Virus record (IMG/VR): IMGVR_UViG_3300028042_000002
Location: 66,050-130,049 of that record
DNA: 64,000 nucleotides
Source of the DNA: a virus
Lineage: Duplodnaviria > Heunggongvirae > Uroviricota > Caudoviricetes
Direction: 5' to 3' (one strand)
Of this stretch, positions 7,004 to 56,543 are shown piece by piece. The notes beneath the pieces are model-generated. The model had not been told where the DNA came from. It was given only the letters and a program-made list of their open reading frames with translations, and searched no databases. Both the position numbers and the translations under genes were made by a program. The number at the start of each line of letters is the position of its first letter. Within the stretch, counting starts at the first letter, position 1.

Positions 7004-7072
7004 ATTTTAGACAAAATAAAACCACCTTTTACAGTGGCTTCTGATGATGATTTAAATTTATATACTTATTAT

Positions 7073-7339
7073 TTATTTAATATTTTCTAAATATGACATT
7101 GCATTATCCAATAAATAAATTGGTGTGATATATTCAGAATTTTTACATTCATTCAACCATACTACAGATTTATTGTTAGATCTTGAAATTAATTCAGTTG
7201 AAATATATACACGATGAATAGCGAGACCATTTGATTTATTTGTTTTTGCTGTGTTGAAAAATAAACCTTTATTAGATGCTAATGTTTTAATATTTTCAAT
7301 TTTTAGGTTGATTAATTGTGCGTTAGTTAATGTAGTCAT
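7073..7339 (-). CDS. small early protein, MTTLTN family
   Basis: N-terminus is MTTLTN. Conserved promoter, UTR and SD upstream. Confidence 0.5.
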   Translation of the reverse strand: MTTLTNAQLINLKIENIKTLASNKGLFFNTAKTNKSNGLAIHRVYISTELISRSNNKSVVWLNECKNSEYITPIYLLDNAMSYLENIK

Positions 7340-7389
7340 AATATTTATTCCTGTTAGTTTGGTTTGCTTTATTGCTTAACATGCAAAGA

Positions 7390-7417
7390 AGTATACTCTT
7401 ATTTTCATTATTGTCTA
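7390..7417 (-). promoter_or_regulatory. early sigma70-like promoter (TAGACA-16-TATACT)
   Basis: Part of a conserved cassette. Confidence 0.5.
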
Positions 7418-7493
7418 GTTATTTATTCAATTATTTTAAATGAATTTAATTATTCAACAATATCAACAACTTACCAACTTAGTCATATAATAA

Positions 7494-7501
7494 TATAAAT
7501 A
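7494..7501 (+). promoter_or_regulatory. T4-late-type promoter TATAAATA
   Basis: TATAAATA lies 37 nt upstream of the 7538 ATG, in the conserved cassette 'catataataatataaatattaataacc'. Confidence 0.5.
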
Positions 7502-7537
7502 TTAATAACCATCCTCCAACCATATAATAATATAAAA

Positions 7538-7951
7538 ATGTCCGATAAAATAGCAGAATTCCTTGATATTTCAGAACTGTCAACCATTGATGAAACTACA
7601 CCCATTATGGATATAGTCACTCATACACATAATAATACTGACATAAAATTAAACAGTATTACAGATTATGCCGAAGTTCGAGCCAACCTTAAACGATTAT
7701 CAACAAAAGGTATGCAGGTGATTGATAGTCTTGCTAAAATGGCAATAGAGGCTCAATCTGCTAGAGATTATGAAGTTTTAACATTATCATTAAAGAATTT
7801 AACTGAAATTAATTTAAGTTTATTAGATGTTAATGAGAAAGCTGGTAAATTGTTGATAGATGAACGAATGTTGAATGAAAATGGGAAAGGTGTGGATGAT
7901 GGAACAATTGATGTTACAGTTGAGCAGTTGCAGAAATTATTAAAAGAATAA
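7538..7951 (+). CDS. hypothetical late protein
   Basis: ORF after a late promoter. Hairpin terminator follows. Confidence 0.5.
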   Translation: MSDKIAEFLDISELSTIDETTPIMDIVTHTHNNTDIKLNSITDYAEVRANLKRLSTKGMQVIDSLAKMAIEAQSARDYEVLTLSLKNLTEINLSLLDVNEKAGKLLIDERMLNENGKGVDDGTIDVTVEQLQKLLKE

Positions 7952-7997
7952 AAAACCACCTGTTAAAGTGGCTTGGATAGAGTTTCAAGGGGAACGA

Positions 7998-8273
7998 TTA
8001 TAAAATTTCAATAATATCATCAGCCCATTCATTTAAGGACAAATAAATTTCATTTTTTGGAATATCATTATCTTTAACATATTCCAAAAAATCATCTATT
8101 AAATCAATAAGTTGGCTATGCGAGATTACTTCCATTTTACCATATTCAGTTAATATAATTTCAAGCTCATTAATAAGTTTAATATTTTTATGATTGGATA
8201 TATGGAGAATATTTTTCAGATTATTTAATCTGTTAATTTGGATTTCAATTTTATCGAGTGTTAATGCAGTCAT
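7998..8273 (-). CDS. small acidic early protein (MTALT start)
   Basis: ORF with an N-terminus related to the MTTLTN family. Confidence 0.45.
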   Translation of the reverse strand: MTALTLDKIEIQINRLNNLKNILHISNHKNIKLINELEIILTEYGKMEVISHSQLIDLIDDFLEYVKDNDIPKNEIYLSLNEWADDIIEIL

Positions 8274-8312
8274 AATTTGGCTAGTCCTGTTTAGTATTAG
8301 TTTATTTAATGA

Positions 8313-8504
8313 TTATTTAGTAACAAGCTCAACAAGATTAGTTAAATCTTTATTTGTAATATTATCATTATCAATGTCATTTACTAAATTTTCACATAAT
8401 GATTTAAGTTGTTCAATTTCATCATTAATATTACTAACTTTACGATTTAATTGAATTTTAAGAGTGGTTACTACAATTTTATTACTTTGAGATATTTTAG
8501 TCAT
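8313..8504 (-). CDS. small early protein
   Basis: ORF with the conserved 'cctgttag' SD region upstream. Confidence 0.4.
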   Translation of the reverse strand: MTKISQSNKIVVTTLKIQLNRKVSNINDEIEQLKSLCENLVNDIDNDNITNKDLTNLVELVTK

Positions 8505-8596
8505 AATCTTAATTCCTGTTAGTTGTTTAAGTTGTTTCGATATGAAAGAGTGTACTCTTATAATATCAACAAGTTACCAACTTAGTCATATAATAA

Positions 8597-8604
8597 TATA
8601 AATA
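8597..8604 (+). promoter_or_regulatory. T4-late-type promoter TATAAATA
   Basis: Conserved cassette upstream of 8632. Confidence 0.45.
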
Positions 8605-8631
8605 CTTAATATCACACCGCACTAGCACAAT

Positions 8632-9156
8632 ATGCCATATTTCAGTCAATTTAATAAAATTAATTACACGTTTGACAGTAACCATAAAGCAACCTTAGTT
8701 AATATCACTCAAAATATAATTCTTAAAAATAATCAAATACGTGATACAACTTTATATTTTAATTATAATATTCAAGATGGTGAAAAAGCTGAACATATTT
8801 CTAATAAATTTTATCGTACACCTGAATACCACTACATAATTTTATTATTAAATGACATCATCAACCCATATTTTGACTGGTGTGTAAGCGGACGAGAGTT
8901 AGAAAGTTTTATAAATGATAAATATGGTTCAACCGTAAATGACGTGCATCATTATATAGATTTAGCTGATAATAATAGGCAGATTGATGATTATGATAGT
9001 GTGAAAATTGGAGAAATGGCAACTATACCAGCCAATATATCAATAGTTACAAATAGAGACCATGAAATAGCGTTAAATGAAGGTAGAAGGCTGATAAAAC
9101 TTATCTCAAGTGATTATATTCTTGAGATAGTGGAAGAGTTTGAAGGATTGTTTTAA
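8632..9156 (+). CDS. hypothetical late protein (possibly structural)
   Basis: 174-aa ORF after a late promoter. Confidence 0.5.
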   Translation: MPYFSQFNKINYTFDSNHKATLVNITQNIILKNNQIRDTTLYFNYNIQDGEKAEHISNKFYRTPEYHYIILLLNDIINPYFDWCVSGRELESFINDKYGSTVNDVHHYIDLADNNRQIDDYDSVKIGEMATIPANISIVTNRDHEIALNEGRRLIKLISSDYILEIVEEFEGLF

Positions 9157-9242
9157 CTTTTAGACTATGAAAAGTGACTTTTAGGTTTAAACTGATTAGA
9201 TGAATTACAATTAATTCAACACATTGATTGTCGAGTGATTAT

Positions 9243-9539
9243 TTAAAACGATTTATAACTTTTACATTCAATTACACCATTAATAAAATCTCTATACGTT
9301 TTAATAATATTATTTAATCGAATTTCTTGTACATCAAAATCAATTTCATTTAAATTATATAAAAATCTTTCACAACTTTTATCACCATTTAATAAAATAT
9401 CTATTTCATATGCTACCAAAGTATGATAACCTTTTTCATTTCCCATTGAAATCATCGTGAATATTAACAATTCAAGTTGGTCAATAATTGTATGATTAGA
9501 TGTTTCAACACTTTTAATACATTTTCTTGAGATTTTCAT
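9243..9539 (-). CDS. small early protein
   Basis: ORF with the conserved SD cassette. Confidence 0.45.
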   Translation of the reverse strand: MKISRKCIKSVETSNHTIIDQLELLIFTMISMGNEKGYHTLVAYEIDILLNGDKSCERFLYNLNEIDFDVQEIRLNNIIKTYRDFINGVIECKSYKSF

Positions 9540-9624
9540 AATATTTATTCCTGTTGGTTAATTCAAGTACCTTATTATAATGATTTTTAAGGTAATGTCC
9601 AGATTTATTTAATTATTTTTGAAA

Positions 9625-9918
9625 TTAGATTAAATCTTCGGCAATACTTTCAGCACTATTGTAAACAATTTCATCATCTTCATTGTAATAATAAAAACTA
9701 TCACAACATTGTTCAGTATCATCAATCCAAATTTCATCATCTAAAATATCATCTTTTGGGTCATCAGTTGGACAATATGTATTAGTGCATAAAAATTCAT
9801 ATGTTACTTCACCGTAACCATTAACACCAATTCTTGCTGATGTTGAATTGTTATCCATTAAATCTAAATAAATTTGAGCAACTTGTAATGCAATTTCAGA
9901 GTTTGTTAATGTAGTCAT
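9625..9918 (-). CDS. small acidic Cys-containing early protein, MTTLTN family
   Basis: N-terminus is MTTLTN. Conserved promoter cassette. Confidence 0.5.
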   Translation of the reverse strand: MTTLTNSEIALQVAQIYLDLMDNNSTSARIGVNGYGEVTYEFLCTNTYCPTDDPKDDILDDEIWIDDTEQCCDSFYYYNEDDEIVYNSAESIAEDLI

Positions 9919-9968
9919 AATATTTAATCCTGTTAGTTAGTTAGGCTTTATTGCTTAACTTGGATACT

Positions 9969-9996
9969 ATTATACTCATTTTTTAATACATGTCAA
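9969..9996 (-). promoter_or_regulatory. early sigma70 consensus promoter (TTGACA-16-TATAAT)
   Basis: Minus strand reads TTGACAtgtattaaaaaatgagTATAAT. Identical to the one at 13316-13343. Confidence 0.6.
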
Positions 9997-10070
9997 CTAA
10001 ATTATGAAATTAATTAAAGTTATTTTAATTATCTAATAATATCAACAACTTACAAACAGTCATATAATAA

Positions 10071-10078
10071 TATAAATA
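10071..10078 (+). promoter_or_regulatory. T4-late-type promoter TATAAATA
   Basis: Conserved cassette upstream of 10119. Confidence 0.45.
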
Positions 10079-10118
10079 TTAACAACCATCTCCACACCGT
10101 ATAATAATATAATCAAAT

Positions 10119-10769
10119 ATGGCTACTAATTTTTATTTAAATCATTATGAAAGCAAACCTGAACAAAATTTAATAGAAAGTTTAACTATTGAAGCTATCA
10201 AATATTGGGGAATGGATGTATTTTACCTACCTCGCACCAGTTTAGAACGTGATAATATTTTGGGTGAAGACATTAAAACAGTATTTAAAAATTCTCATAT
10301 GATTGAAGTATATTTTGAAAATGTTGATGGTTTCGAGGGTCAAGGCAACTTTTTATCAACTTTTGGAATGCAAATTAAAGATAATGCAACATTAATTATA
10401 AGTAAATCAAGATTTCAACAAGTTGTATATGGTAAAGTAAGACCAATGGAAGGGGATTTAATTTATTTACCATTATCCAATTCAATATTTGAAATTAATT
10501 TTGTCGAGCATGAGAACCCATTTTATCAAGTTGGTAAATTATTCACATATAAATTAACGTGTGAATTATATACACATAGTCATGAAGATTTTGAAACTGG
10601 TAATGTTAATATAGATGGGATAATGGCGGACTTTGATGATGTTAAAATGGTGAATAGTGCAGATAATATTGATATTCAGAATGAAAGTGATGTAATAGTT
10701 AAGGATATTGAAAATCCTAAAGATGAATTTGAGAATATTGCGGATAATGACCCATTTAATGGATTTTAG
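10119..10769 (+). CDS. hypothetical late protein (possibly virion-associated)
   Basis: 216-aa ORF after a late promoter. Confidence 0.5.
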   Translation: MATNFYLNHYESKPEQNLIESLTIEAIKYWGMDVFYLPRTSLERDNILGEDIKTVFKNSHMIEVYFENVDGFEGQGNFLSTFGMQIKDNATLIISKSRFQQVVYGKVRPMEGDLIYLPLSNSIFEINFVEHENPFYQVGKLFTYKLTCELYTHSHEDFETGNVNIDGIMADFDDVKMVNSADNIDIQNESDVIVKDIENPKDEFENIADNDPFNGF

Positions 10770-10774
10770 GCAAA

Positions 10775-10800
10775 ATAAAACCACCTGTTAAAGTGGTTTC
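10775..10800. terminator. bidirectional hairpin terminator (AAACCAC-loop-GTGGTTT)
   Basis: Stem aaaccac/gtggttt with a T-run on the minus strand. Member of a recurring hairpin family. Confidence 0.5.
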
Positions 10801-10828
10801 ATGATGTTTCACTTGGAATAATTAATAA

Positions 10829-11419
10829 TTATAAATTCATTAAACTTTTTAAATCATCATTTGCAACGGCTAATTTCATTGCTTCAAGTTTATCATTTTG
10901 TAATTTTACAATTTCTTCTTGTTGATTAATGATTTTATTTACAAGTTGTTGTTCCATATCAGATAATTCAACTTTAGTTGTTACTTCTTCGTCATTATTA
11001 AACATTTTATCAAATTCAATCATGAATTCATTAATAATTGAATATAGTGCATCATCCAAAGTATTCCATTTTTCTTCACAATCCATTGTTGGTTTCTGAT
11101 AATTATCATTAGTAATTTCTTCATTATCATTTTCCCAATCTTCAAAAAATTGTTTATTATCTAATTCAATATTAAACCTTTTCATAATTTTTAACAAGTT
11201 AATGCCACTTTCACTATTTGATAATTCACTCATTTCAAAAAGATTAATCATTTCATTATGTAAAGTTAATTCTTCAACATTAGCACCAAAACACCCATTT
11301 CCATTGGTATCACAACCATTTGAGTAATATTGATAATGTCCACCCTTATTTACTTGATTTACATAATTTGATAATAAAGTTTCTAAACGAGTTGTTTCAG
11401 TTGTAGTTAATGTAGTCAT
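10829..11419 (-). CDS. acidic early protein, MTTLTT family
   Basis: N-terminus is MTTLTTTE. Conserved cassette upstream. Confidence 0.5.
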   Translation of the reverse strand: MTTLTTTETTRLETLLSNYVNQVNKGGHYQYYSNGCDTNGNGCFGANVEELTLHNEMINLFEMSELSNSESGINLLKIMKRFNIELDNKQFFEDWENDNEEITNDNYQKPTMDCEEKWNTLDDALYSIINEFMIEFDKMFNNDEEVTTKVELSDMEQQLVNKIINQQEEIVKLQNDKLEAMKLAVANDDLKSLMNL

Positions 11420-11471
11420 AATATTTATTCCTGTTAGTTAATTAGTTGTTTAAGTTGCTTCGATATAAAAG

Positions 11472-11499
11472 AGTATACTCCCATTTTCACTATTGTCTA
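11472..11499 (-). promoter_or_regulatory. early promoter (TAGACA-16-TATACT)
   Basis: Conserved cassette. Confidence 0.5.
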
Positions 11500-11621
11500 G
11501 TTATTTATTCAATTATTTTAAAATAAATTAATTATCTAATAATATCAACAAGTTACCAACTTAGTCATATAATAATATAAATATTAATAACCATCAAATC
11601 ACTTTATAATAATATAAAACT

Positions 11622-11909
11622 ATGTCAAAACCTGCTCATCGCACCACCGATTTATGCACTGGTCATTCATGTTACCCGCCACGCCGAAGTAAAACAGGTT
11701 CACCAGATGTCATAATAAATGATAAATTGGCTCATAGATTAGGTGATAGTTGGAATACTCATTCATGTGGGAGGTATGGTCATAAAGGTGAAACTGTAAC
11801 CGCATCTATGTATGTTATTATAAATGATAAAGGGTGCGCACGAATTGGGGATGATGTGAGTTGTGGTAGTGTGATAATGACAGGTTCAAATGATGTTATA
11901 GTTGATTAA
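11622..11909 (+). CDS. gp5.4: PAAR-repeat tail-spike tip protein (T4 gp5.4-like)
   Basis: 95 aa. PAAR-like motifs: 'AHRLGDSW', 'ARIGDDVSCGSVIMTGSNDVIV'. Cys/His-rich. Late promoter upstream. Confidence 0.7.
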   Translation: MSKPAHRTTDLCTGHSCYPPRRSKTGSPDVIINDKLAHRLGDSWNTHSCGRYGHKGETVTASMYVIINDKGCARIGDDVSCGSVIMTGSNDVIVD

Positions 11910-11911
11910 TA

Positions 11912-11940
11912 AAAACCATCATAAAAGGTGGTTTTTTTAT
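11912..11940 (+). terminator. rho-independent terminator
   Basis: aaaacca-N10-tggtttt followed by a T-run. Confidence 0.55.
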
Positions 11941-11957
11941 TGAAAAATAATTATTAA

Positions 11958-12650
11958 TTATCTAGCTAACATTACATATCTAGCATAATCATAACCTTGT
12001 GTATCAATATAAATAGTTTCTCTGTCTGTTGATACTAATGCAAATCCTGTCCAATAATCAATATTATCAGTTTCTTCATTATAACCATCATCAATATATG
12101 AAACATTAAACTTTTTACGACTTTTAAGTAAATTATTTACAATTTTATCATATTTTTTAGTTTTAACATTGATAATTTTAATCACTTTAAATTTAGTTTC
12201 AATGAATTTCTGCTCACATTCAAACCGAACCTCACCAATTGTACAATTTTTATTTAACCATGGATTTTTAACATTAACAATTTGATTAAGTTGTGGTAAA
12301 TATGATACACATTCACAATTTTGTAATGCTTCTGTACGGTTAATTCTATATAAATCTTTAGCTTTTTGTTCATCATCTTCCCGCTTCCAAATTTTAAATA
12401 AAAATTCATATTCAGTATCTAAAATATTTTGAAGATTAACTTTAACATCAGCTAAAGTTTTAAATGTCTCTAAATATCCCATACCATTCATTAAATATTC
12501 TTTAGTATCAGGTTTTAAATTAAAAAATATACACCAACCTCCAAATTGTTTTTGGATATAAACATCGGCGAAATATTTTGTGTCTTGAGTTTCATATTTA
12601 CAACTGCTTTCATCATATTTAGCTTTAATTCTAGTATAAGTACGTTTCAT
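11958..12650 (-). CDS. hypothetical protein
   Basis: 230-aa ORF with an early promoter cassette upstream. Confidence 0.5.
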   Translation of the reverse strand: MKRTYTRIKAKYDESSCKYETQDTKYFADVYIQKQFGGWCIFFNLKPDTKEYLMNGMGYLETFKTLADVKVNLQNILDTEYEFLFKIWKREDDEQKAKDLYRINRTEALQNCECVSYLPQLNQIVNVKNPWLNKNCTIGEVRFECEQKFIETKFKVIKIINVKTKKYDKIVNNLLKSRKKFNVSYIDDGYNEETDNIDYWTGFALVSTDRETIYIDTQGYDYARYVMLAR

Positions 12651-12801
12651 AATTTTTAATCCTGTTAGGTTGCGGTTAAAAAGTTAACTAATTTGCTTAA
12701 CTTGGATACTATTATACTCATATTTTAACTATTATCTAGTTATTTATTCAATTATTTTAAAATGAATTTAATTATTCAACAATATCAACAACTTACCCTC
12801 A

Positions 12802-13197
12802 TTATCTCAACCTTTGCAAATATAAATTAGTTGTAATATTATCAATTTGATTAAATATTTTATATACTATCTCAATATTATAACCATCGACACCGTCCGC
12901 AAATACATCAATTTTTATTAAATTTATTCTATTTATATACTTATTAATAAGAAAATCCAAACTAGATTTAATAGACAATGCTGTTATGGTGGTTGCAGGC
13001 TCAAATAATAATGATTTCAATGATTTACTATAATCAATATTAAATTTAAAATCACGATAATCAGACATAATTATATGTTTTAATTGTCTATTTATAGATG
13101 TTTCATTGGTTAAAATATTGATATCATTGTTAAGCGGGTGTACATTGAAATTTAAATCCACGTCTGTATATATAATAGAGTTGATATTATTGGGCAT
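12802..13197 (-). CDS. gp25: baseplate wedge protein, gp25/GPW-like
   Basis: The pattern 'YTDVDLNF..HPL..DI..L.N..SI..SLK.LL..' and 'LLFEP...INRINLIKIDV' resembles the T4 gp25 family. Late promoter on the minus strand upstream. Confidence 0.5.
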   Translation of the reverse strand: MPNNINSIIYTDVDLNFNVHPLNNDINILTNETSINRQLKHIIMSDYRDFKFNIDYSKSLKSLLFEPATTITALSIKSSLDFLINKYINRINLIKIDVFADGVDGYNIEIVYKIFNQIDNITTNLYLQRLR

Positions 13198-13233
13198 ATT
13201 GCGATAAGAAATAAGGTGATTAGAGGTTATTAA

Positions 13234-13241
13234 TATTTATA
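13234..13241 (-). promoter_or_regulatory. T4-late-type promoter TATAAATA (minus strand)
   Basis: The reverse complement tatttata is followed by 'ttaataacc', as in the other cassettes. Confidence 0.45.
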
Positions 13242-13315
13242 TTATTATAAATTTGATTGTAAGTTGTTGATATTATTAGATATTTAAATTCATTTAAAAT
13301 AATTGAATAATTTAG

Positions 13316-13343
13316 TTGACATGTATTAAAAAATGAGTATAAT
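13316..13343 (+). promoter_or_regulatory. early sigma70 consensus promoter
   Basis: TTGACAtgtattaaaaaatgagTATAAT, followed by the conserved leader 'agtatccaagttaagca' and an AGGAAT SD. Confidence 0.6.
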
Positions 13344-13394
13344 AGTATCCAAGTTAAGCAGTAACCAATTAATCAACTAACAGGAATAATTATT

Positions 13395-13535
13395 ATGAAC
13401 ATGAATAACTTTGTTAAAATGGCGTTAGAAACTGCAATTGAAATTACAGGTAAAGATGGTAAAGATGAAGAAACACAAAAAATTGCATTTGAATTAGCAT
13501 GTGTAATGATGGCTGATGAATTAGCAAATAATTAA
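13395..13535 (+). CDS. small ORF (about 46 aa) upstream of parB-like gene; not in ORF track
   Basis: ATG 8 nt after the AGGAAT SD. Encodes 'MNMNNFVKMALETAIEITGKDGKDEETQKIAFELACVMMADELANN'. Confidence 0.35.
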   Translation: MNMNNFVKMALETAIEITGKDGKDEETQKIAFELACVMMADELANN

Positions 13536-13622
13536 ATAACTATTGACAGTACCTTAAAAATCATTATAATAAGGTACTTGAAACATTAAGTAACAATTAA
13601 CTAACTAACAGGAATTAATAAA

Positions 13623-14516
13623 ATGGCTACACAAATCAAAGGTTTAATCGGTGGTACTCGTGCAACTAACTTTTTCAAAATTGACCCAGAATTAATTATT
13701 ATTCAAGAAGGGTTTAATCCTCGCGATAGTTCTAACATTGACCCACTTGAATTATATGAAAGTATTAAAGAAAATGGTGTAGTATCTCCACTTATCATCA
13801 AATTAGATAAAGACGGTAATGTACTTTTAGTTGACGGTGAACGTAGATTAACTACGGTTTTAAAATTGATTGAAGATGGTGTAGACATTCAATCTGTGCC
13901 ATGTTTAAAAATTAACAAATCTCAAGATAACGAAGTTGATTTGTTAATGATGGCAATGATTGCAAACGATAGCAAACAATTAACACCATTAGAATTTAGT
14001 GAGACCTTCGCTAGATTGTTAAAATATGGGTTAAAACCTGCTGAAATTGCTAAAAAAGTAGGTAAAAGTCGGGGATGGGTTGATAATATGATTATCTTAA
14101 ATAACCTTAATCCATCTTTGAAACAAGAATTAAGAAATGGTGTAATTACGTTAAATATTGCGTTGGATATTGTACGTGAAAATCAAGGTGATTATGAAGC
14201 CCAAAATGAAGATTTTAAAATCATTACTGAAAATGCTGAAATTATTACTGAAACTGTAATAAATGAAGATAATGAACCAGTTGAAAAAGTTGTTAAAACT
14301 AAATTATATTCAAAAGGGTCAATGAAGCCTGTTAAATTGGGTGTTGCTAAAGAAATTCTTAAGGCAGTTGCATTCAATGATGAAGAATTAGAAGATTTAG
14401 CCAATCTTAAACAACTTATTGATAAATATACAACCGATGATAAAAGTATTTCGAATGTTGAAATGAAAGCATTTGCACTTGGAATGATGGCGGCTAAAGG
14501 TAAATATATGGTTTAA
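13623..14516 (+). CDS. parB: ParB-like nuclease/partition domain protein
   Basis: N-terminal ParB box 'VDGERRLTTV', then an HTH 'KPAEIAKKVGKSRGWVDNMIIL'. 297 aa. Confidence 0.7.
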   Translation: MATQIKGLIGGTRATNFFKIDPELIIIQEGFNPRDSSNIDPLELYESIKENGVVSPLIIKLDKDGNVLLVDGERRLTTVLKLIEDGVDIQSVPCLKINKSQDNEVDLLMMAMIANDSKQLTPLEFSETFARLLKYGLKPAEIAKKVGKSRGWVDNMIILNNLNPSLKQELRNGVITLNIALDIVRENQGDYEAQNEDFKIITENAEIITETVINEDNEPVEKVVKTKLYSKGSMKPVKLGVAKEILKAVAFNDEELEDLANLKQLIDKYTTDDKSISNVEMKAFALGMMAAKGKYMV

Positions 14517-16773: not shown

Positions 16774-16961
16774 AATTATCAGAATTTAATAAAAGTAATG
16801 AAGATGCAAATCATCCATGTTATTTATGTAGAAATAGAATTATACATGATAATAAATATTGTAATTTTCATCCTAAATACGAACCTCATTGTATAATGTT
16901 GGTGTCACCATTTGAATTTTTAAATATGAATAAACTTTGTGATGCTATATCCTCTTCTTAA
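16770..16961 (+). CDS. small Cys/His-rich protein
   Basis: 'CYLC...CNFH' zinc-ribbon-like. Confidence 0.35.
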   Translation: MKLSEFNKSNEDANHPCYLCRNRIIHDNKYCNFHPKYEPHCIMLVSPFEFLNMNKLCDAISSS

Positions 16962-17400
16962 TACCTAATTCATATTCAGTCATTATCTTAAAATTTATGC
17001 CATGTTTAGTACAATATTCATTGGCATATTTCCATTTATCAGTATTCTTACGATAAGTCAATAATTCTTTTAATAATATTACTTTACGTTTACCTTTTTT
17101 TGGAACTGGTTCAATAGTTTCATGATATGGCTTAACTTCGATTAAATCTACTACAATTTCATCACTTTTATTACGATATTTTACTATAAAATCAGGGAAA
17201 TAACGTCTAACCTTTTTATCAACAGATGAATAATATCTTATTACTATGGTTTCACTACCCCACTCTAGGATATTTGGGTCTATGTCAAATCGTACCATCA
17301 ATTTCAATTCCCATGATGATCTATAGATTATATTTTTAACATTGCCTTTATATTTATCAGGATTTGAAGGTGTAAATCGACCTTTTTTAGCTTTATTCAT
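16945..17400 (-). CDS. PD-(D/E)xK-type nuclease-like protein (possible free-standing homing endonuclease)
   Basis: 'YFPDFIV...DLIEVKP' is a D...E.K motif. Lone minus-strand gene after plus-strand genes. Confidence 0.4.
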   Translation of the reverse strand: MNKAKKGRFTPSNPDKYKGNVKNIIYRSSWELKLMVRFDIDPNILEWGSETIVIRYYSSVDKKVRRYFPDFIVKYRNKSDEIVVDLIEVKPYHETIEPVPKKGKRKVILLKELLTYRKNTDKWKYANEYCTKHGINFKIMTEYELGIKKRI

Positions 17401-18531: not shown

Positions 18532-19725
18532 ATGATAAACCAATCAAATATGATAGATAAATCAGCATTAGAAATTTTTGAAATATTTTTAGATGATAAT
18601 TCACATAAAGCAGGTTATGAAAAATTCATTCATCCTGATGGAAATTATATTCCAATATCTGAAATACACGCAGAATTTGACGCATGGTGTTCCAAACTTG
18701 GAGTGTCTGCTAAAGTTTATACCAATAGAAAATTTAAACATACAATGGTGTTATACTACGTGAAATGGCTAAAGGATTATAAATTATATTTAAGTGAAAA
18801 ATTATCAAAATGTCCAATCTCAAACAATCAAACAGAGTGGAAAAAACTCCAAAAATTGACAGAATTTACAGATAATGACATCATCATTTATAAGGCGTTA
18901 ATATGGAAAATTAAAACCCAACTTATAACAAATAAACAAATCAAGATACAATTTCCAATGCCAGTATTATTCAGTACTAAACAAGGCTTGGGTAAATCAT
19001 ATTTTAATAAATTATTATGTGAACCATTAGGCGAACTTTCAATTGAACGTGATATTTCAGTTTTAAACGATGAAAATAATTCTAAATTATTTAAAGATAT
19101 GTTACTTATCAACTTTGATGAAATGGCTAGTCAAACTAAGGAAAGCTTAACAAACCTTAAGAGTATTTTAACTAAAGATGATATCCAATTTAGAGAAATT
19201 TATACAGCTAATCAGATTACAGTAAAAAAGATGTTTTGTAGTGTAGGTTCATCTAATAAATCATTACATGAAATTTTAAATGATACGACAGGCTCGCGTA
19301 GATTATGGCAAGTTAGTTTAATTAAATCAATATATAAGACTATTCATAGTATTGATTTTCTTGAACTGTATCGAGAAGTTGATCACAATAAACCATGTGA
19401 ACTAATGAATGATGAATGTTATACTAAAATAATGGATATTCAACAATCAACCCAGCGTAAAAAGGATATTGTTGAATATTGGATTGAAGCTTGGAATTGT
19501 AATATTAATTATGGTGATATGATAGAAGTTGATATTCCATTAAATAATAGTACATATACTTCTATGTATTTATATAAACATTTTGAAAATTGGTGTATAA
19601 TTAACAATGAAAAAGTATTATCACATAATAAATTTGGTAGAAGTGTTAAAAATTATTTATCAACTGTTTTTATTAAGCACCGTACAAGTAAATTTAAAGG
19701 TTACAAATTTATCACACCACAATAA
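18532..19725 (+). CDS. D5_N-like + VirE-family P-loop NTPase (P4-alpha-type primase-helicase C-terminal module)
   Basis: 'LYAEFDAWC' D5_N-like region. Walker A 'KQGLGKSYF', Walker B 'INFDEMAS', VirE signature 'NDTTGSRRLWQV'. Confidence 0.65.
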   Translation: MINQSNMIDKSALEIFEIFLDDNSHKAGYEKFIHPDGNYIPISEIHAEFDAWCSKLGVSAKVYTNRKFKHTMVLYYVKWLKDYKLYLSEKLSKCPISNNQTEWKKLQKLTEFTDNDIIIYKALIWKIKTQLITNKQIKIQFPMPVLFSTKQGLGKSYFNKLLCEPLGELSIERDISVLNDENNSKLFKDMLLINFDEMASQTKESLTNLKSILTKDDIQFREIYTANQITVKKMFCSVGSSNKSLHEILNDTTGSRRLWQVSLIKSIYKTIHSIDFLELYREVDHNKPCELMNDECYTKIMDIQQSTQRKKDIVEYWIEAWNCNINYGDMIEVDIPLNNSTYTSMYLYKHFENWCIINNEKVLSHNKFGRSVKNYLSTVFIKHRTSKFKGYKFITPQ

Positions 19726-40941: not shown

Positions 40942-41184
40942 ATGACAACTAATTACACTACAACACCTCCAACATTTGCCAAAGATGCTAAACCTTCAAA
41001 ATTAGGTTGGCACGATAAATCAACTGGTGAATTGTTGGTATCTAATCGAAATATTAACCCCGATTTATACGCTAAGAAAAATATTAAAGTTGAGAAGGAA
41101 GTTAAAGTAGTTAAAGCATCTCAAACCACAATTAAGAAAAAAGTTGTAACAACTAAAAAGAAAGTTACCAAAGCTAGAAAATGA
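40942..41184 (+). CDS. small basic Lys-rich (histone H1-like tail) protein
   Basis: C-terminus 'KKKVVTTKKKVTKARK'. Confidence 0.4.
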   Translation: MTTNYTTTPPTFAKDAKPSKLGWHDKSTGELLVSNRNINPDLYAKKNIKVEKEVKVVKASQTTIKKKVVTTKKKVTKARK

Positions 41185-50429: not shown

Positions 50430-51137
50430 TTATACAAGTTGTTCAGCTAATTTATCCATACTAGATTTATTGCTTTCAAATAATGGTGTTTCATTATTAG
50501 CATTATGCTTTACAGTATTACCATTAAAATACTGGTCTTTAATTAATCCTAATTGAACCAAAGTTGTACTATCATCAATATAATCAATATTTTCAGATAA
50601 TCCTTTAAACTTTTCAGCTTGAGTTTCGGTTAAATTACTTTTAGAGAGGTAACTACTAATAACATTTTCTTTATGAAGATTATCAACATGTGAGTGTAAG
50701 GTTGAGTTCATTTCAATAAGTGTATTAATTTTATTTTCAAGGTTTTCAATTTTAGTATCAGCTTCACCAAGAATATCCACATATTCAGTAGGCATATCAA
50801 TATGACACTCATTGAATACATCTTTCATTTTACTGACAAATTCATTAAGTTTTTCAACTCTTAAACCATGGTCAAGTTCAACTTTATTATTTTCAATCCA
50901 TTCATTAATGGCATAATCTGAATATTGTTTAACTTTTTCATCTAATGTTTCAGATTGTTTTTCTAAAGCTTCGGAAAGGATTTCAAGGTTTTTAATTTCC
51001 AACTCTGATTGAATTGTTTTAACCTTTTCAGATAATAATTCATCTAAACCAGTAATAAATTTATCTTGTTCACTTTCAGATAATTGTACATCTTTGAAAA
51101 TAATATTCTTATCTTCATTTGTTAATAATGTGGTCAT
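50430..51137 (-). CDS. gp22: prohead core scaffold protein (gp22-like)
   Basis: Acidic coiled-coil protein between gp21 and gp23. Late promoter TATAAATA and GGAG SD upstream. N-terminus is MTTLLTN. Confidence 0.7.
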   Translation of the reverse strand: MTTLLTNEDKNIIFKDVQLSESEQDKFITGLDELLSEKVKTIQSELEIKNLEILSEALEKQSETLDEKVKQYSDYAINEWIENNKVELDHGLRVEKLNEFVSKMKDVFNECHIDMPTEYVDILGEADTKIENLENKINTLIEMNSTLHSHVDNLHKENVISSYLSKSNLTETQAEKFKGLSENIDYIDDSTTLVQLGLIKDQYFNGNTVKHNANNETPLFESNKSSMDKLAEQLV

Positions 51138-52509: not shown

Positions 52510-52830
52510 TTACTTTCCTAATTGTGGGATTAATTTTAAACTATTTTGTAAAGTATCAATCAGTTTACCTTGATTTACATCTGCATTATTAACACTTTTC
52601 ACACCTTGTACCGAACTTTTAAATGCACATTTTTCATTTAAATCTAATGTAGCAAAATCAACAGGTTTACCACTTGTTACACTAATTTCACATTTAAAAT
52701 CTTTATTAGAGTGTATAATTCTATAAGTTGATGCACCTGCTACAGATGATTGATTATCTCCACGAATTGTAGAAAATTGTGAACATGCTGATATCATAAA
52801 TAACGTTAATAATAATATAAAATATTTCAT
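52510..52830 (-). CDS. small lipoprotein encoded inside head-gene cluster
   Basis: Signal peptide with lipobox 'MISAC|S'. Conserved Cys pair. Confidence 0.5.
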   Translation of the reverse strand: MKYFILLLTLFMISACSQFSTIRGDNQSSVAGASTYRIIHSNKDFKCEISVTSGKPVDFATLDLNEKCAFKSSVQGVKSVNNADVNQGKLIDTLQNSLKLIPQLGK

Positions 52831-55089: not shown

Positions 55090-55791
55090 GTGCAAGAAAT
55101 AATAAATATGACAATGAAAATGATAATGAGACATGAAAAATTAACATCATTTTTAACAGAACTTAATCTTCATGACAGTTATAATATATTAATTGTTGAT
55201 GAAAATGGTGATGCTTTGGTACATGAGACTAATTTAATACGTGAATTTTCTGCCATTAACACAAAACGTAAAAATATGCTAGATAAAATTAAAAAAGAAT
55301 ATTATGATTATTTTACAGTATTAGATTATGTAAAATTGTTACATGGTAATAGCGATGATTATGCTAATACACATAATAAATTTTATTATGACATCGAATA
55401 TAATTATCAATTTTCACCTGATTTATTTACAGATGCCAATCAAGAACGTTTTATTATTATCGAAACTACTCATAATGACAGTCATAAAACATTAAATACT
55501 ATTCATCGTGTTGATGATGATTGTGAATTATTGGGATATGGTAGATATGTAACAATCAGCGTTAAATTATATTATGATGATAATGCAGAATATGAATGTT
55601 TACGATTTTATGTAACCAGTGCAGATGATTTAAATATGAGTTTCAATTATAATGTTACCACTTTGGATGAATATAATAAAATGTATTTAGAATGCGTAAA
55701 ATATTTAAGAAATGTTAAAGATTTGCCATCTATTACAGAATTTGAAAAATATTGGAGGGTTTTAAATGTTGTAGAATTTGATTATAATTAA
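55090..55791 (+). CDS. hypothetical protein
   Basis: 233-aa ORF. Confidence 0.45.
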   Translation: MQEIINMTMKMIMRHEKLTSFLTELNLHDSYNILIVDENGDALVHETNLIREFSAINTKRKNMLDKIKKEYYDYFTVLDYVKLLHGNSDDYANTHNKFYYDIEYNYQFSPDLFTDANQERFIIIETTHNDSHKTLNTIHRVDDDCELLGYGRYVTISVKLYYDDNAEYECLRFYVTSADDLNMSFNYNVTTLDEYNKMYLECVKYLRNVKDLPSITEFEKYWRVLNVVEFDYN

Positions 55792-55880: not shown

Positions 55881-56543
55881 ATGTTAAAAAATATCACAAT
55901 CAATAAAATCAATCGTAAATATGCTAAAATCACTATCTCAAATGGTTTTGAATGTAAATTAATCGTAGATGATGCAGTTAAAAGGTTGGGAACTGGTACA
56001 TTTGATTTGGATATCAAAGATGTTTCAATTAAAACTAAATATGGCACAAATTGTATTTATGAATTGGTTAGTAATGGTGAAATTAATGAAAATAATATAG
56101 TTTTTCTTAAATCTGATTATTATAATCAAAATTTAGTTAATGAATGTCATAAATTAGGTGGACGTTATGATAGTACAACTAAAGTATGGGATTTTCCATC
56201 ATATATTGAAGATAAAGTCGAAGAATTGGATTATATTTATAATAGTCCATTAAAACCTTATCAAATTACTGTAAATTATAAATTTTATGAATACAATCAA
56301 CCAATTGAAATTATGGGATTTACTATTGCAACTGCTTATGATAGAGATGGTGGGGCTAAAGTAAATAATGATGAAATGTTAAGAATTTCAGTATTGCAAG
56401 GCGGATTTACAAGTGGTGGAAGTCATAAAAATTGGAAAACAGTTGCTAAAGAAGGTACAATAATCAGATTATATTTACCATCTAAATTAGTTGAAGAATT
56501 TGGAAATTTTGATGATGATGTTTATAAAATTGAGGAAGTTTAA
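55881..56543 (+). CDS. hypothetical protein
   Basis: 220-aa ORF. Confidence 0.45.
   Translation: MLKNITINKINRKYAKITISNGFECKLIVDDAVKRLGTGTFDLDIKDVSIKTKYGTNCIYELVSNGEINENNIVFLKSDYYNQNLVNECHKLGGRYDSTTKVWDFPSYIEDKVEELDYIYNSPLKPYQITVNYKFYEYNQPIEIMGFTIATAYDRDGGAKVNNDEMLRISVLQGGFTSGGSHKNWKTVAKEGTIIRLYLPSKLVEEFGNFDDDVYKIEEV

Follow-up and report, generated by a model that had tools for sequence, protein, structure and literature searches.

The DNA analysed here, called the window, is the whole stretch of 64,000 nucleotides (nt) taken from the virus record IMGVR_UViG_3300028042_000002 (Caudoviricetes), and its subject is a group of four small minus-strand open reading frames (ORFs) between positions 7,073 and 11,419 whose products begin with MTTLT or MTALT. 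The prohead scaffold protein gp22 of the same genome starts with MTTLLTN. A preliminary description had taken this common N-terminus for a possible tag on candidate packaged internal or anti-defence proteins, by analogy with the capsid-targeting sequence (CTS) of phage T4. The five N-termini were confirmed in the sequence (Table 1). The early character of the small ORFs is supported by consensus sigma-70 promoters and by the absence of the late promoter octamer TATAAATA from their own strand. They are accessory genes in a repeat-rich region, and their bodies are unrelated, with no mutual similarity (best of 36 pairs z=2.5 in local alignments against shuffled sequences) and no homologues in the databases searched: ORF10829 and ORF9625 returned only themselves among 5.8 billion proteins, and ORF7073 returned itself and one spurious match to a tandem-repeat protein among 1.84 billion cluster representatives. 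The proteins had also been described as acidic, which is correct for three of the four (isoelectric point, pI, 4.05 to 4.54) and wrong for ORF7073, which is basic; about 42% of all proteins of the window are acidic anyway. Judged from their sequence these ORFs are real genes, because they have consensus promoters, ribosome-binding sites (RBS) and terminators and stay open over 88 to 196 codons where stop codons are frequent.

The common segment is short. Only five to six residues are shared, and in a single pair, ORF7998 and ORF9625, the similarity extends over about 13 residues. The motif T[TA]LL?T[NT] occurs four times among all proteins of the window, each time at residue 2, and an MT[TA]L start was found in none of about 1,500 ORFs from 80 related loci. 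Unrelated gene pairs of the window share prefixes of four or five residues as well (e.g. MKQIN), but always made of the common residues K, N and I.

The identity among the small ORFs goes far beyond chance and is that of a DNA repeat. The leader DNA, ATGACTACATTAAC, is the final 14 nt of a bidirectional promoter cassette of about 215 nt, of which at least six copies were found. A full one comprises, on the minus strand, an AT-rich block, a sigma-70 promoter, a 5' untranslated region (UTR) of about 45 nt, the RBS box CTAACAGGAATAAATATT, the ATG, and ACT ACA TTA AC. The AT-rich block GTTGATATTRTTRRATAATTAAA was identified in five copies against 0.06 expected and the RBS box in eight in the window against 0.02 expected. 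The box is followed by ATGACTACATTAAC in three copies, plus one copy with a single mismatch; the three are exactly the full copies of a 153-nt repeat (family D1), and repeats of 51 and 153 nt have ATGACTACATTAAC at their end. The cassette promoters are perfect TTGACA-16-TATAAT or TAGACA-16-TATACT (10 to 12 of 12 consensus positions), AGGA is located 9 nt ahead of the ATG in all copies, and ATTATGA is invariant in the seven aligned minus-strand copies. The plus strand of the cassette carries ATATAATAATATAAATA with the T4-type late promoter octamer TATAAATA. An exact repeat of the late promoter had suggested another cassette at 63.4-63.6 kb, which proved not to be a copy. Among the cassette-driven minus-strand ORFs scanned, no significant Pfam or PHROG family was identified.

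The octamer lies 28-41 nt upstream of four plus-strand late genes (gp16-like, gp53, gp14 and PAAR) and 33-41 nt upstream of gp22, portal and sheath; since the same octamer precedes these last three, it is regarded as the late promoter of this phage. Five core late genes, the four named and a baseplate wedge gene, are found at 7300-13700 as single-gene units, each with its own TATAAATA, and the region is a chain of modules. In each of them a late promoter is followed by a single core late gene and a hairpin terminator, which is shared with one or two early ORFs that read back on the other strand from an early promoter. The near-identical terminators between convergent late and early genes (family D4) are a second repeated regulatory element, apart from the cassette. 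In the closest relatives found (gp14 62% and 55% identical) gp13 to gp23 form one collinear same-strand operon with no interleaved ORFs, and the single-gene modules are therefore considered derived; by this comparison the conserved T4 late module was broken up here. Each span between the direct-repeat cassettes C1, C3 and C4 contains a presumably essential late gene and at least one accessory ORF. As an idea only, deletion from cassette to cassette would remove an essential gene, which could lock the accessory genes in place.

Table 1. Positions of the genes and regulatory elements discussed (numbering of the window)
Feature	Position	Strand	Description
ORF7073	7073..7339	-	88 aa; starts MTTLTNAQ; basic, pI 9.4 (9.37)
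ORF7998	7998..8273	-	91 aa; starts MTALTLDK; acidic, pI 4.5 (4.54)
ORF9625	9625..9918	-	97 aa; starts MTTLTNSE; very acidic, pI 4.05; 4 Cys
ORF10829	10829..11419	-	196 aa; starts MTTLTTTE; acidic, pI 4.2 (4.21)
gp22 prohead scaffold	50430..51137	-	starts MTTLLTNE; PF25623 E=2e-34
Cassette C1	7322..7540	-	TAGACA-16-TATACT 7417-7390, RBS box, ATGACTACATTAAC; plus-strand TATAAATA 7494-7501
Truncated cassette copy	8505..8631	-	-35 block gone, RBS box kept; plus-strand TATAAATA 8597-8604
Cassette C3	9901..10121	-	perfect TTGACA-16-TATAAT 9996-9969, RBS box, ATGACTACATTAAC; plus-strand TATAAATA 10071-10078
Cassette C4	11402..11624	-	TAGACA-16-TATACT 11499-11472, RBS box, ATGACTACATTAAC; plus-strand TATAAATA 11576-11583
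Cassette C5, early half only	12651..12801	-	mosaic; promoter 12738-12711
Cassette C6, inverted	13198..13397	+	TTGACA-16-TATAAT 13316-13343 faces ORF13395; minus-strand TATAAATA 13241-13234 faces baseplate wedge gene
Class II PeSL-like promoter	9540..9624	-	TGGACA-16-TATAAT 9601-9574; hairpin GTACCTTA...TAAGGTAC over -10 box
Second class II PeSL-like promoter	13536..13622	+	TTGACA-16-TATAAT 13543-13570; hairpin over -10 box; ahead of ParB-like gene
ORF8313	8313..8504	-	63 aa; starts MTKISQ; behind truncated cassette; degenerate leader copy
ORF9243	9243..9539	-	98 aa; starts MKISRK; same RBS box, no tag; behind class II promoter
ORF11958	11958..12650	-	230 aa; starts MKRTYT; behind early half of cassette; no tag
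ORF13395	13395..13535	+	46 aa; starts MNMNNF; behind inverted full cassette copy; no tag
gp16-like small terminase	7538..7951	+	phrog_445 E=1e-12; TATAAATA 37 nt upstream, from C1
gp53-like baseplate wedge	8632..9156	+	phrog_232 E=5e-36; PF11246; TATAAATA 28 nt upstream
gp14 neck protein	10119..10769	+	phrog_679 E=6e-63; late promoter in C3
PAAR (gp5.4-like) spike tip	11622..11909	+	PF05488; phrog_281; late promoter in C4
Baseplate wedge subunit	12802..13197	-	phrog_261 E=9e-18; late side of inverted C6, TATAAATA 37 nt upstream
Terminator hairpin copy 1	7018..7041		AAACCACC-loop-GGTGGTTT
Terminator hairpin copy 2	7953..7974		AAACCACC-loop-GGTGGTTT
Terminator hairpin copy 3	10778..10799		AAACCACC-loop-GGTGGTTT
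Terminator hairpin copy 4	11911..11938		AAAACCATC...GGTGGTTTT, read directly from sequence

The leader and the repeated promoter cassette

The homology between cassettes does not end at the start codon. It continues as ACT ACA TTA AC in C1, C3 and C4, the full direct repeats, and ORF9625 and ORF10829 are 88% identical over a 51-nt repeat (family D2) to about +25 of the coding sequence; ORF7998 and ORF9625 are 76% identical over 42 nt (family D7), to about +39. C6 equals C3 up to the ATG and diverges after it, and C5 and C6 have the same promoter and RBS followed by unrelated codons. Identity to C3 was compared over 30 nt upstream and over the first 15 nt of the coding sequence (background identity 0.31). 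ORF7073 and ORF10829 both present 25/30 upstream and 14/15 coding matches and encode MTTLT; ORF8313 presents 22/30 and 11/15 (MTKIS), the ParB-like gene at 13623 22/30 and 10/15 (MATQI), and ORF9243 22/30 and 9/15 (MKISR). The identity of the first codons mostly tracks that of the upstream 30 nt, and the tag is therefore the edge of the repeat. The preliminary description had set a targeting tag against recombination of a cassette including the first codons, and for the small ORFs it is largely the second to which the repeat points. The exception is ORF7998. It follows ORF8313 as the second gene and lacks its own promoter, and it has a diverged RBS region and 10/30 upstream matches (ungapped, background level), yet 14/15 matches in the first codons.

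Synonymous variation is nearly absent among the three exact copies, as expected of a DNA repeat, and this gives no independent sign of selection on the peptide. In the degenerate copies the drifted DNA changes amino acids, so the peptide is apparently not under purifying selection there. C5 is a mosaic of a -35 block of the C1/C4 type and a -10/UTR block of the C3/C6 type, and such mosaic blocks are probably the footprint of recombination between copies. The 5'UTR and first 40 nt of seven cassette copies have minimum free energies of -1.9 to -7.6 kcal/mol, with z of +0.5 to +1.1 against shuffled sequences, being less structured than these, as would be expected for an efficient initiation module. 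A conserved RNA structure in this region was rejected, with z>0 and no Rfam match in the window.

The closest known parallel is found in the PeSLs (promoter-early stem-loops), early promoter cassettes of T4-type phages that contain a stable stem-loop, a terminator or attenuator, and end in a Shine-Dalgarno sequence and a start codon (Arbiol et al. 2010, PMC2839356; Comeau et al. 2014, PMC4122927). They are found in hyperplastic regions beside ORFs lacking homologues (ORFans), and their recombination mediates modular shuffling. Here too a sigma-70-like early promoter with an AT-rich upstream region is repeated, the 3' part of the cassette is formed by a Shine-Dalgarno sequence and a start codon, the neighbours are ORFans absent from gp13-gp23 of the closest relatives, and the copies form mosaics, as recombination among them would produce. 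In both class II promoters (9574-9601 and 13543-13570) a hairpin covers the -10 box, and these promoters resemble the published PeSLs and also the promoters read upstream of T4 ipII and ipIII. Differences are that the main cassette has weak AT palindromes only and no G+C-rich stem-loop, that it is bidirectional, with an opposite-strand late promoter for core late genes, that the terminators, located at the 3' ends of convergent genes, make up a repeat family of their own, and that the homology extends past the ATG by 14-25 nt of coding sequence.

The explanation preferred here, to which an even chance is given, is that MTTLT(N/T) is a leader inherited together with a recombining, PeSL-like expression cassette. 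The portable module would comprise the promoter, the translation-initiation region and the first five codons, and the shared peptide would come along with it, because the leader is contiguous with the DNA repeat. Unrelated ORF bodies with no homologues would have been fused in frame to the leader at the coding-side end of the cassette, and the module would have been spread and reshuffled by homologous recombination between copies, as for the PeSLs. The tagged proteins would then be strongly expressed, lineage-specific accessory proteins, presumably made early, whose N-terminal peptide probably has no targeting role of its own, while the plus-strand TATAAATA of each copy would drive a single core late gene. 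The resemblance to gp22 would be a coincidence.

Several points weigh against this explanation. The published PeSLs stop at the start codon, and five shared in-frame codons in four unrelated ORFs need an extra explanation. The retention of 14 of the 15 leader nucleotides in ORF7998 hints at additional conservation of the first five codons. gp22 shares MTTL(L)TN with no cassette DNA, a match that has to be called fortuitous. The T4 genes ipII and ipIII are examples of a real targeting peptide encoded by a cassette that takes in the first codons. Finally, no related genome was found, and recombination is read from the mosaic pattern only.

The gp22 N-terminus and capsid targeting in T4

The principal alternative is that MTTL(L)T(N) is a capsid-targeting leader shared with, or copied from, gp22, with which the early proteins would co-assemble with gp22 in the prohead core, be packaged and be injected with the DNA into the next host. 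It would be similar to a CTS with another sequence and without the T4-type cleavage site, the cargo could be anti-defence or takeover factors, and a leader placed on a recombining cassette would allow the phage to provide any ORF that it captures with early expression and loading into the capsid in one step. This is considered unlikely, though far from negligible. The gp22 match speaks for it and is the one finding that the preferred explanation has to leave to coincidence. The gp22 gene is located between the prohead protease gene (PF03420, upstream) and the gp23-like capsid gene (downstream) and is preceded, at a distance of 33 nt, by a TATAAATA (51177-51170) as its late promoter. It has its own GGAG RBS and no cassette, and its upstream DNA has no similarity to the cassette. 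It begins ATG ACC ACA TTA TTA ACA AAT GAA; ORF7073 begins ATG ACT ACA TTA ACT AAC, and ORF9625 has ...ACA AAC TCT GAA. Besides one extra Leu codon, the six codons shared by gp22 and ORF7073 differ at 3 nt, all synonymous. The resemblance thus appears to lie at the protein level and not to come from a recent transfer of DNA; the pair was noticed for its amino-acid identity, so that the synonymous differences are no independent test of selection.

The probability of a chance match was calculated from position-specific N-terminal residue frequencies of 95 non-cassette genes of the window. MTTL is expected at 3-5e-4 per gene, or 0.03 per window, and MTTL(L)TN with one indel at 1.25e-5 per gene, or about 1e-3 (0.0012) per window, a nominal value. 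The N-termini of 19 related gp22 proteins, taken from loci fetched with gp14, are all different (the closest starts MPDENLDLTQE), and residues 1-10 lie outside the conserved PF25623 domain; a variable segment of this kind fits a lineage-specific signal. The link to gp22 made in the preliminary description is then nominally non-random and at the protein level, but it is not what T4 predicts, where the CTS was reported not to be conserved in other core proteins and no likeness to gp22 was reported (PMC9958956). The mechanism of core localisation in T4 is still called mysterious (PMC9958956).

The T4 internal proteins provide further support in their gene layout. T-even internal proteins have been described as diverse defence proteins having only the CTS in common (PMC3012670). 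T4 ipII and ipIII are identical in DNA from about -19 to +32, which comprises the RBS and the 10-codon CTS, and their bodies are unrelated; by our own reading of the sequence each is preceded by a sigma-70-like promoter, GTTTAC...TAnnnT, whose -10 box is covered by a hairpin. In both phages, therefore, unrelated small proteins with a common short N-terminus are found in variable regions of a T4-type genome, and promoter, RBS and tag codons are shared at the DNA level. Because ipII and ipIII have this same architecture, neither the cassette origin nor the early promoter argues against targeting. No TATAAATA was found within 160 nt of T4 ipII or ipIII, and the early-only timing of the tagged ORFs was dropped as an argument against packaging.

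The hallmarks of the T4 signal itself are absent. The T4 CTS is a propeptide of 10-19 residues in which targeting needs residues 4 and 7 and processing residues 8 and 10 (PMC9026906), whereas 5-6 residues are common here and MTTLTN shares only the Met with MKTYQEFIAE. The T4 prohead protease gp21 cuts the CTS after Glu in an (L/I)xE context (PMC9026906, PMC7697877). The first [LIV]xE of the four ORFs is at residues 62, 34, 92 and 48, none within the first 30, and their totals of 1-4 such sites are at chance level; gp22 has 12, the first at residues 19-21. A gp21 homologue (PF03420) is present in the window and the window's gp23 carries LKE|A at the place where T4 gp23 is cut. T4 gp22 starts MLKEQLIAEA, and its partial likeness to the CTS is the cleavage site. 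The T4 internal proteins are small, basic and DNA-associated, IPII and IPIII having a pI of 9.3-9.6, unlike the three acidic ones of the four proteins here. By the strict T4 definition, and as far as the sequence can tell, the leader is not a CTS.

Glu is found at residue 8 in three of the five tag-bearing proteins (gp22, ORF9625 and ORF10829, as MTTL(L)TxxE), with Gln in ORF7073 and Lys in ORF7998. It could be the site of a Glu-specific protease with a P3 preference unlike that of T4, and this is weak evidence because ORF9625 and ORF10829 share DNA there. Single-sequence AlphaFold2 models of ORF10829 and ORF9625 are unreliable (predicted local distance difference test, pLDDT, 52); in both, residues 1-5 are predicted ahead of the first helix, which was counted as a point for targeting. 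Further points against targeting are that the identity among the ORFs is that of a DNA repeat, with degenerate and tag-less starts behind the same cassette, and that no late promoter precedes the tagged ORFs.

A small late protein of 80 aa (40942-41184, plus strand) starts MTTNYTTTPP, with a Thr-rich N-terminus, and has TATAAATA 38 nt upstream and no family match; it does not belong to the leader family. The ParB-like gene, whose start MATQIK was compared above, is located at 13623-14516 (plus strand) behind a perfect sigma-70 promoter, and it matches HTH_ParB and ParB_N, and also GmrSD_N, this last match being below the Pfam gathering cut-off.

Selection on RNA and paralogy

Two more explanations were weighed, each of them improbable. 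According to the first, selection acts on the segment from about -21 to +14 as an optimal ribosome landing site or as an operator of a RegA-like translational repressor of early mRNAs, and the peptide is a by-product. The 30S footprint has the size of the span from the RBS box to +14, which fits the conserved segment, and the T4 RegA sites are AU-rich conserved sequences spanning the start codon of several early genes, to which the AU-rich stretch conserved over the start codon here is similar by analogy only. The invariant ATTATGA, the unstructured initiation regions and ORF7998, which keeps a diverged RBS box and the first 15 nt with no promoter, are also in agreement with it. However, in half of the cassette copies the same RBS box is followed by codons 2-5 of unrelated sequence, no conserved RNA structure or Rfam family was identified, no RegA homologue was found in the window, and other highly expressed late genes (gp23, sheath, tube and portal) start differently from the leader. 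Neither would it explain why the differences from gp22 are only synonymous.

That one gene was duplicated with its cassette, its bodies diverging while gene conversion with the selected promoter and RBS region held the 5' ends similar, is hardly probable either: the extended identities of ORF9625 with ORF10829 and with ORF7998 (in the latter pair the similar residues 7-13 rank 2 of 104), the similar sizes of ORF7073, ORF7998 and ORF9625 (88-97 aa) and the helix 6-22/24 followed by a beta-hairpin with which both low-confidence models begin would agree with it, but the models are too poor for comparison, pI goes from 9.4 to 4.0, one ORF has twice the length of the rest, and hidden paralogy of the bodies was not supported by the local alignments against shuffled sequences.

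The phage lineage and the meaning of the leader

The window has a G+C content of 25.3% and belongs to a very AT-rich T4-type myovirus genome. The T4-type set comprises the gp22 scaffold (PF25623), the gp21 protease (PF03420), portal, sheath and tube protein, and further gp14 neck, gp53, PAAR and gp16-like small terminase genes; no tRNA genes or Rfam matches were found in its 64 kb. The phage is uncultured and known solely from metagenome contigs, those of ENA ERZ27262682, whose contig k141_1386850 (58.6 kb) lies inside the window, and a 130-kb JGI contig. No close cultured phage was identified, the best DNA matches being confined to the gp14 gene and covering 3% of the query, and no close relatives were found in IMG/VR, INPHARED, the GTDB genomes or the protein databases. 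Scans of IMG/VR with cassette-plus-leader patterns and with the late-promoter repeat gave nothing, or one chance match in a metagenome-assembled genome of a giant virus, and a scan of the GTDB genomes gave nothing. A metagenome scan with the RBS-box pattern AACAGGAWTAAWTATTATG gave 118 loci, all single chance matches in unrelated context. The search of IMG/VR with gp23 found no related locus, and that of the protein databases with gp22 returned gp22 itself only. By these comparisons the lineage is very isolated.

Some further genes of the window were noted. Two plus-strand ORFs (55108-55791 and 55881-56543), with no family matches, interrupt the gp19 tube-gp20 portal interval of an otherwise collinear minus-strand head-tail module. 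An ORF of 106 aa (52510-52830, minus strand), also with no family match, is located between portal and a gp68-like gene in the head module and starts with MKYFILLLTLFMISAC; this start resembles the signal peptide of a lipoprotein and includes a lipobox-like ISAC. A protein with a TnsA-like endonuclease N-domain (16945-17400, minus strand) and a VapE/D5-primase-like protein (18532-19725, plus strand), called on the matching ENA contig, are unusual companions in a T4-type genome.

If the leader is part of an expression module only, this is an unusually clear PeSL-like case in a lineage with no cultured relatives, where the cassettes carry the first codons and an opposite-strand late promoter and split the collinear T4 late module into single-gene units among early accessory genes. 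If the leader is a targeting signal, a CTS-like system would be known for the first time beyond the T-even phages, and this would extend the principle of internal proteins and CTS to a distant uncultured T4-like lineage. It would point to mimicry of the scaffold N-terminus for the recruitment of cargo into the core, and would provide a short tag with which foreign proteins could be brought into capsids.

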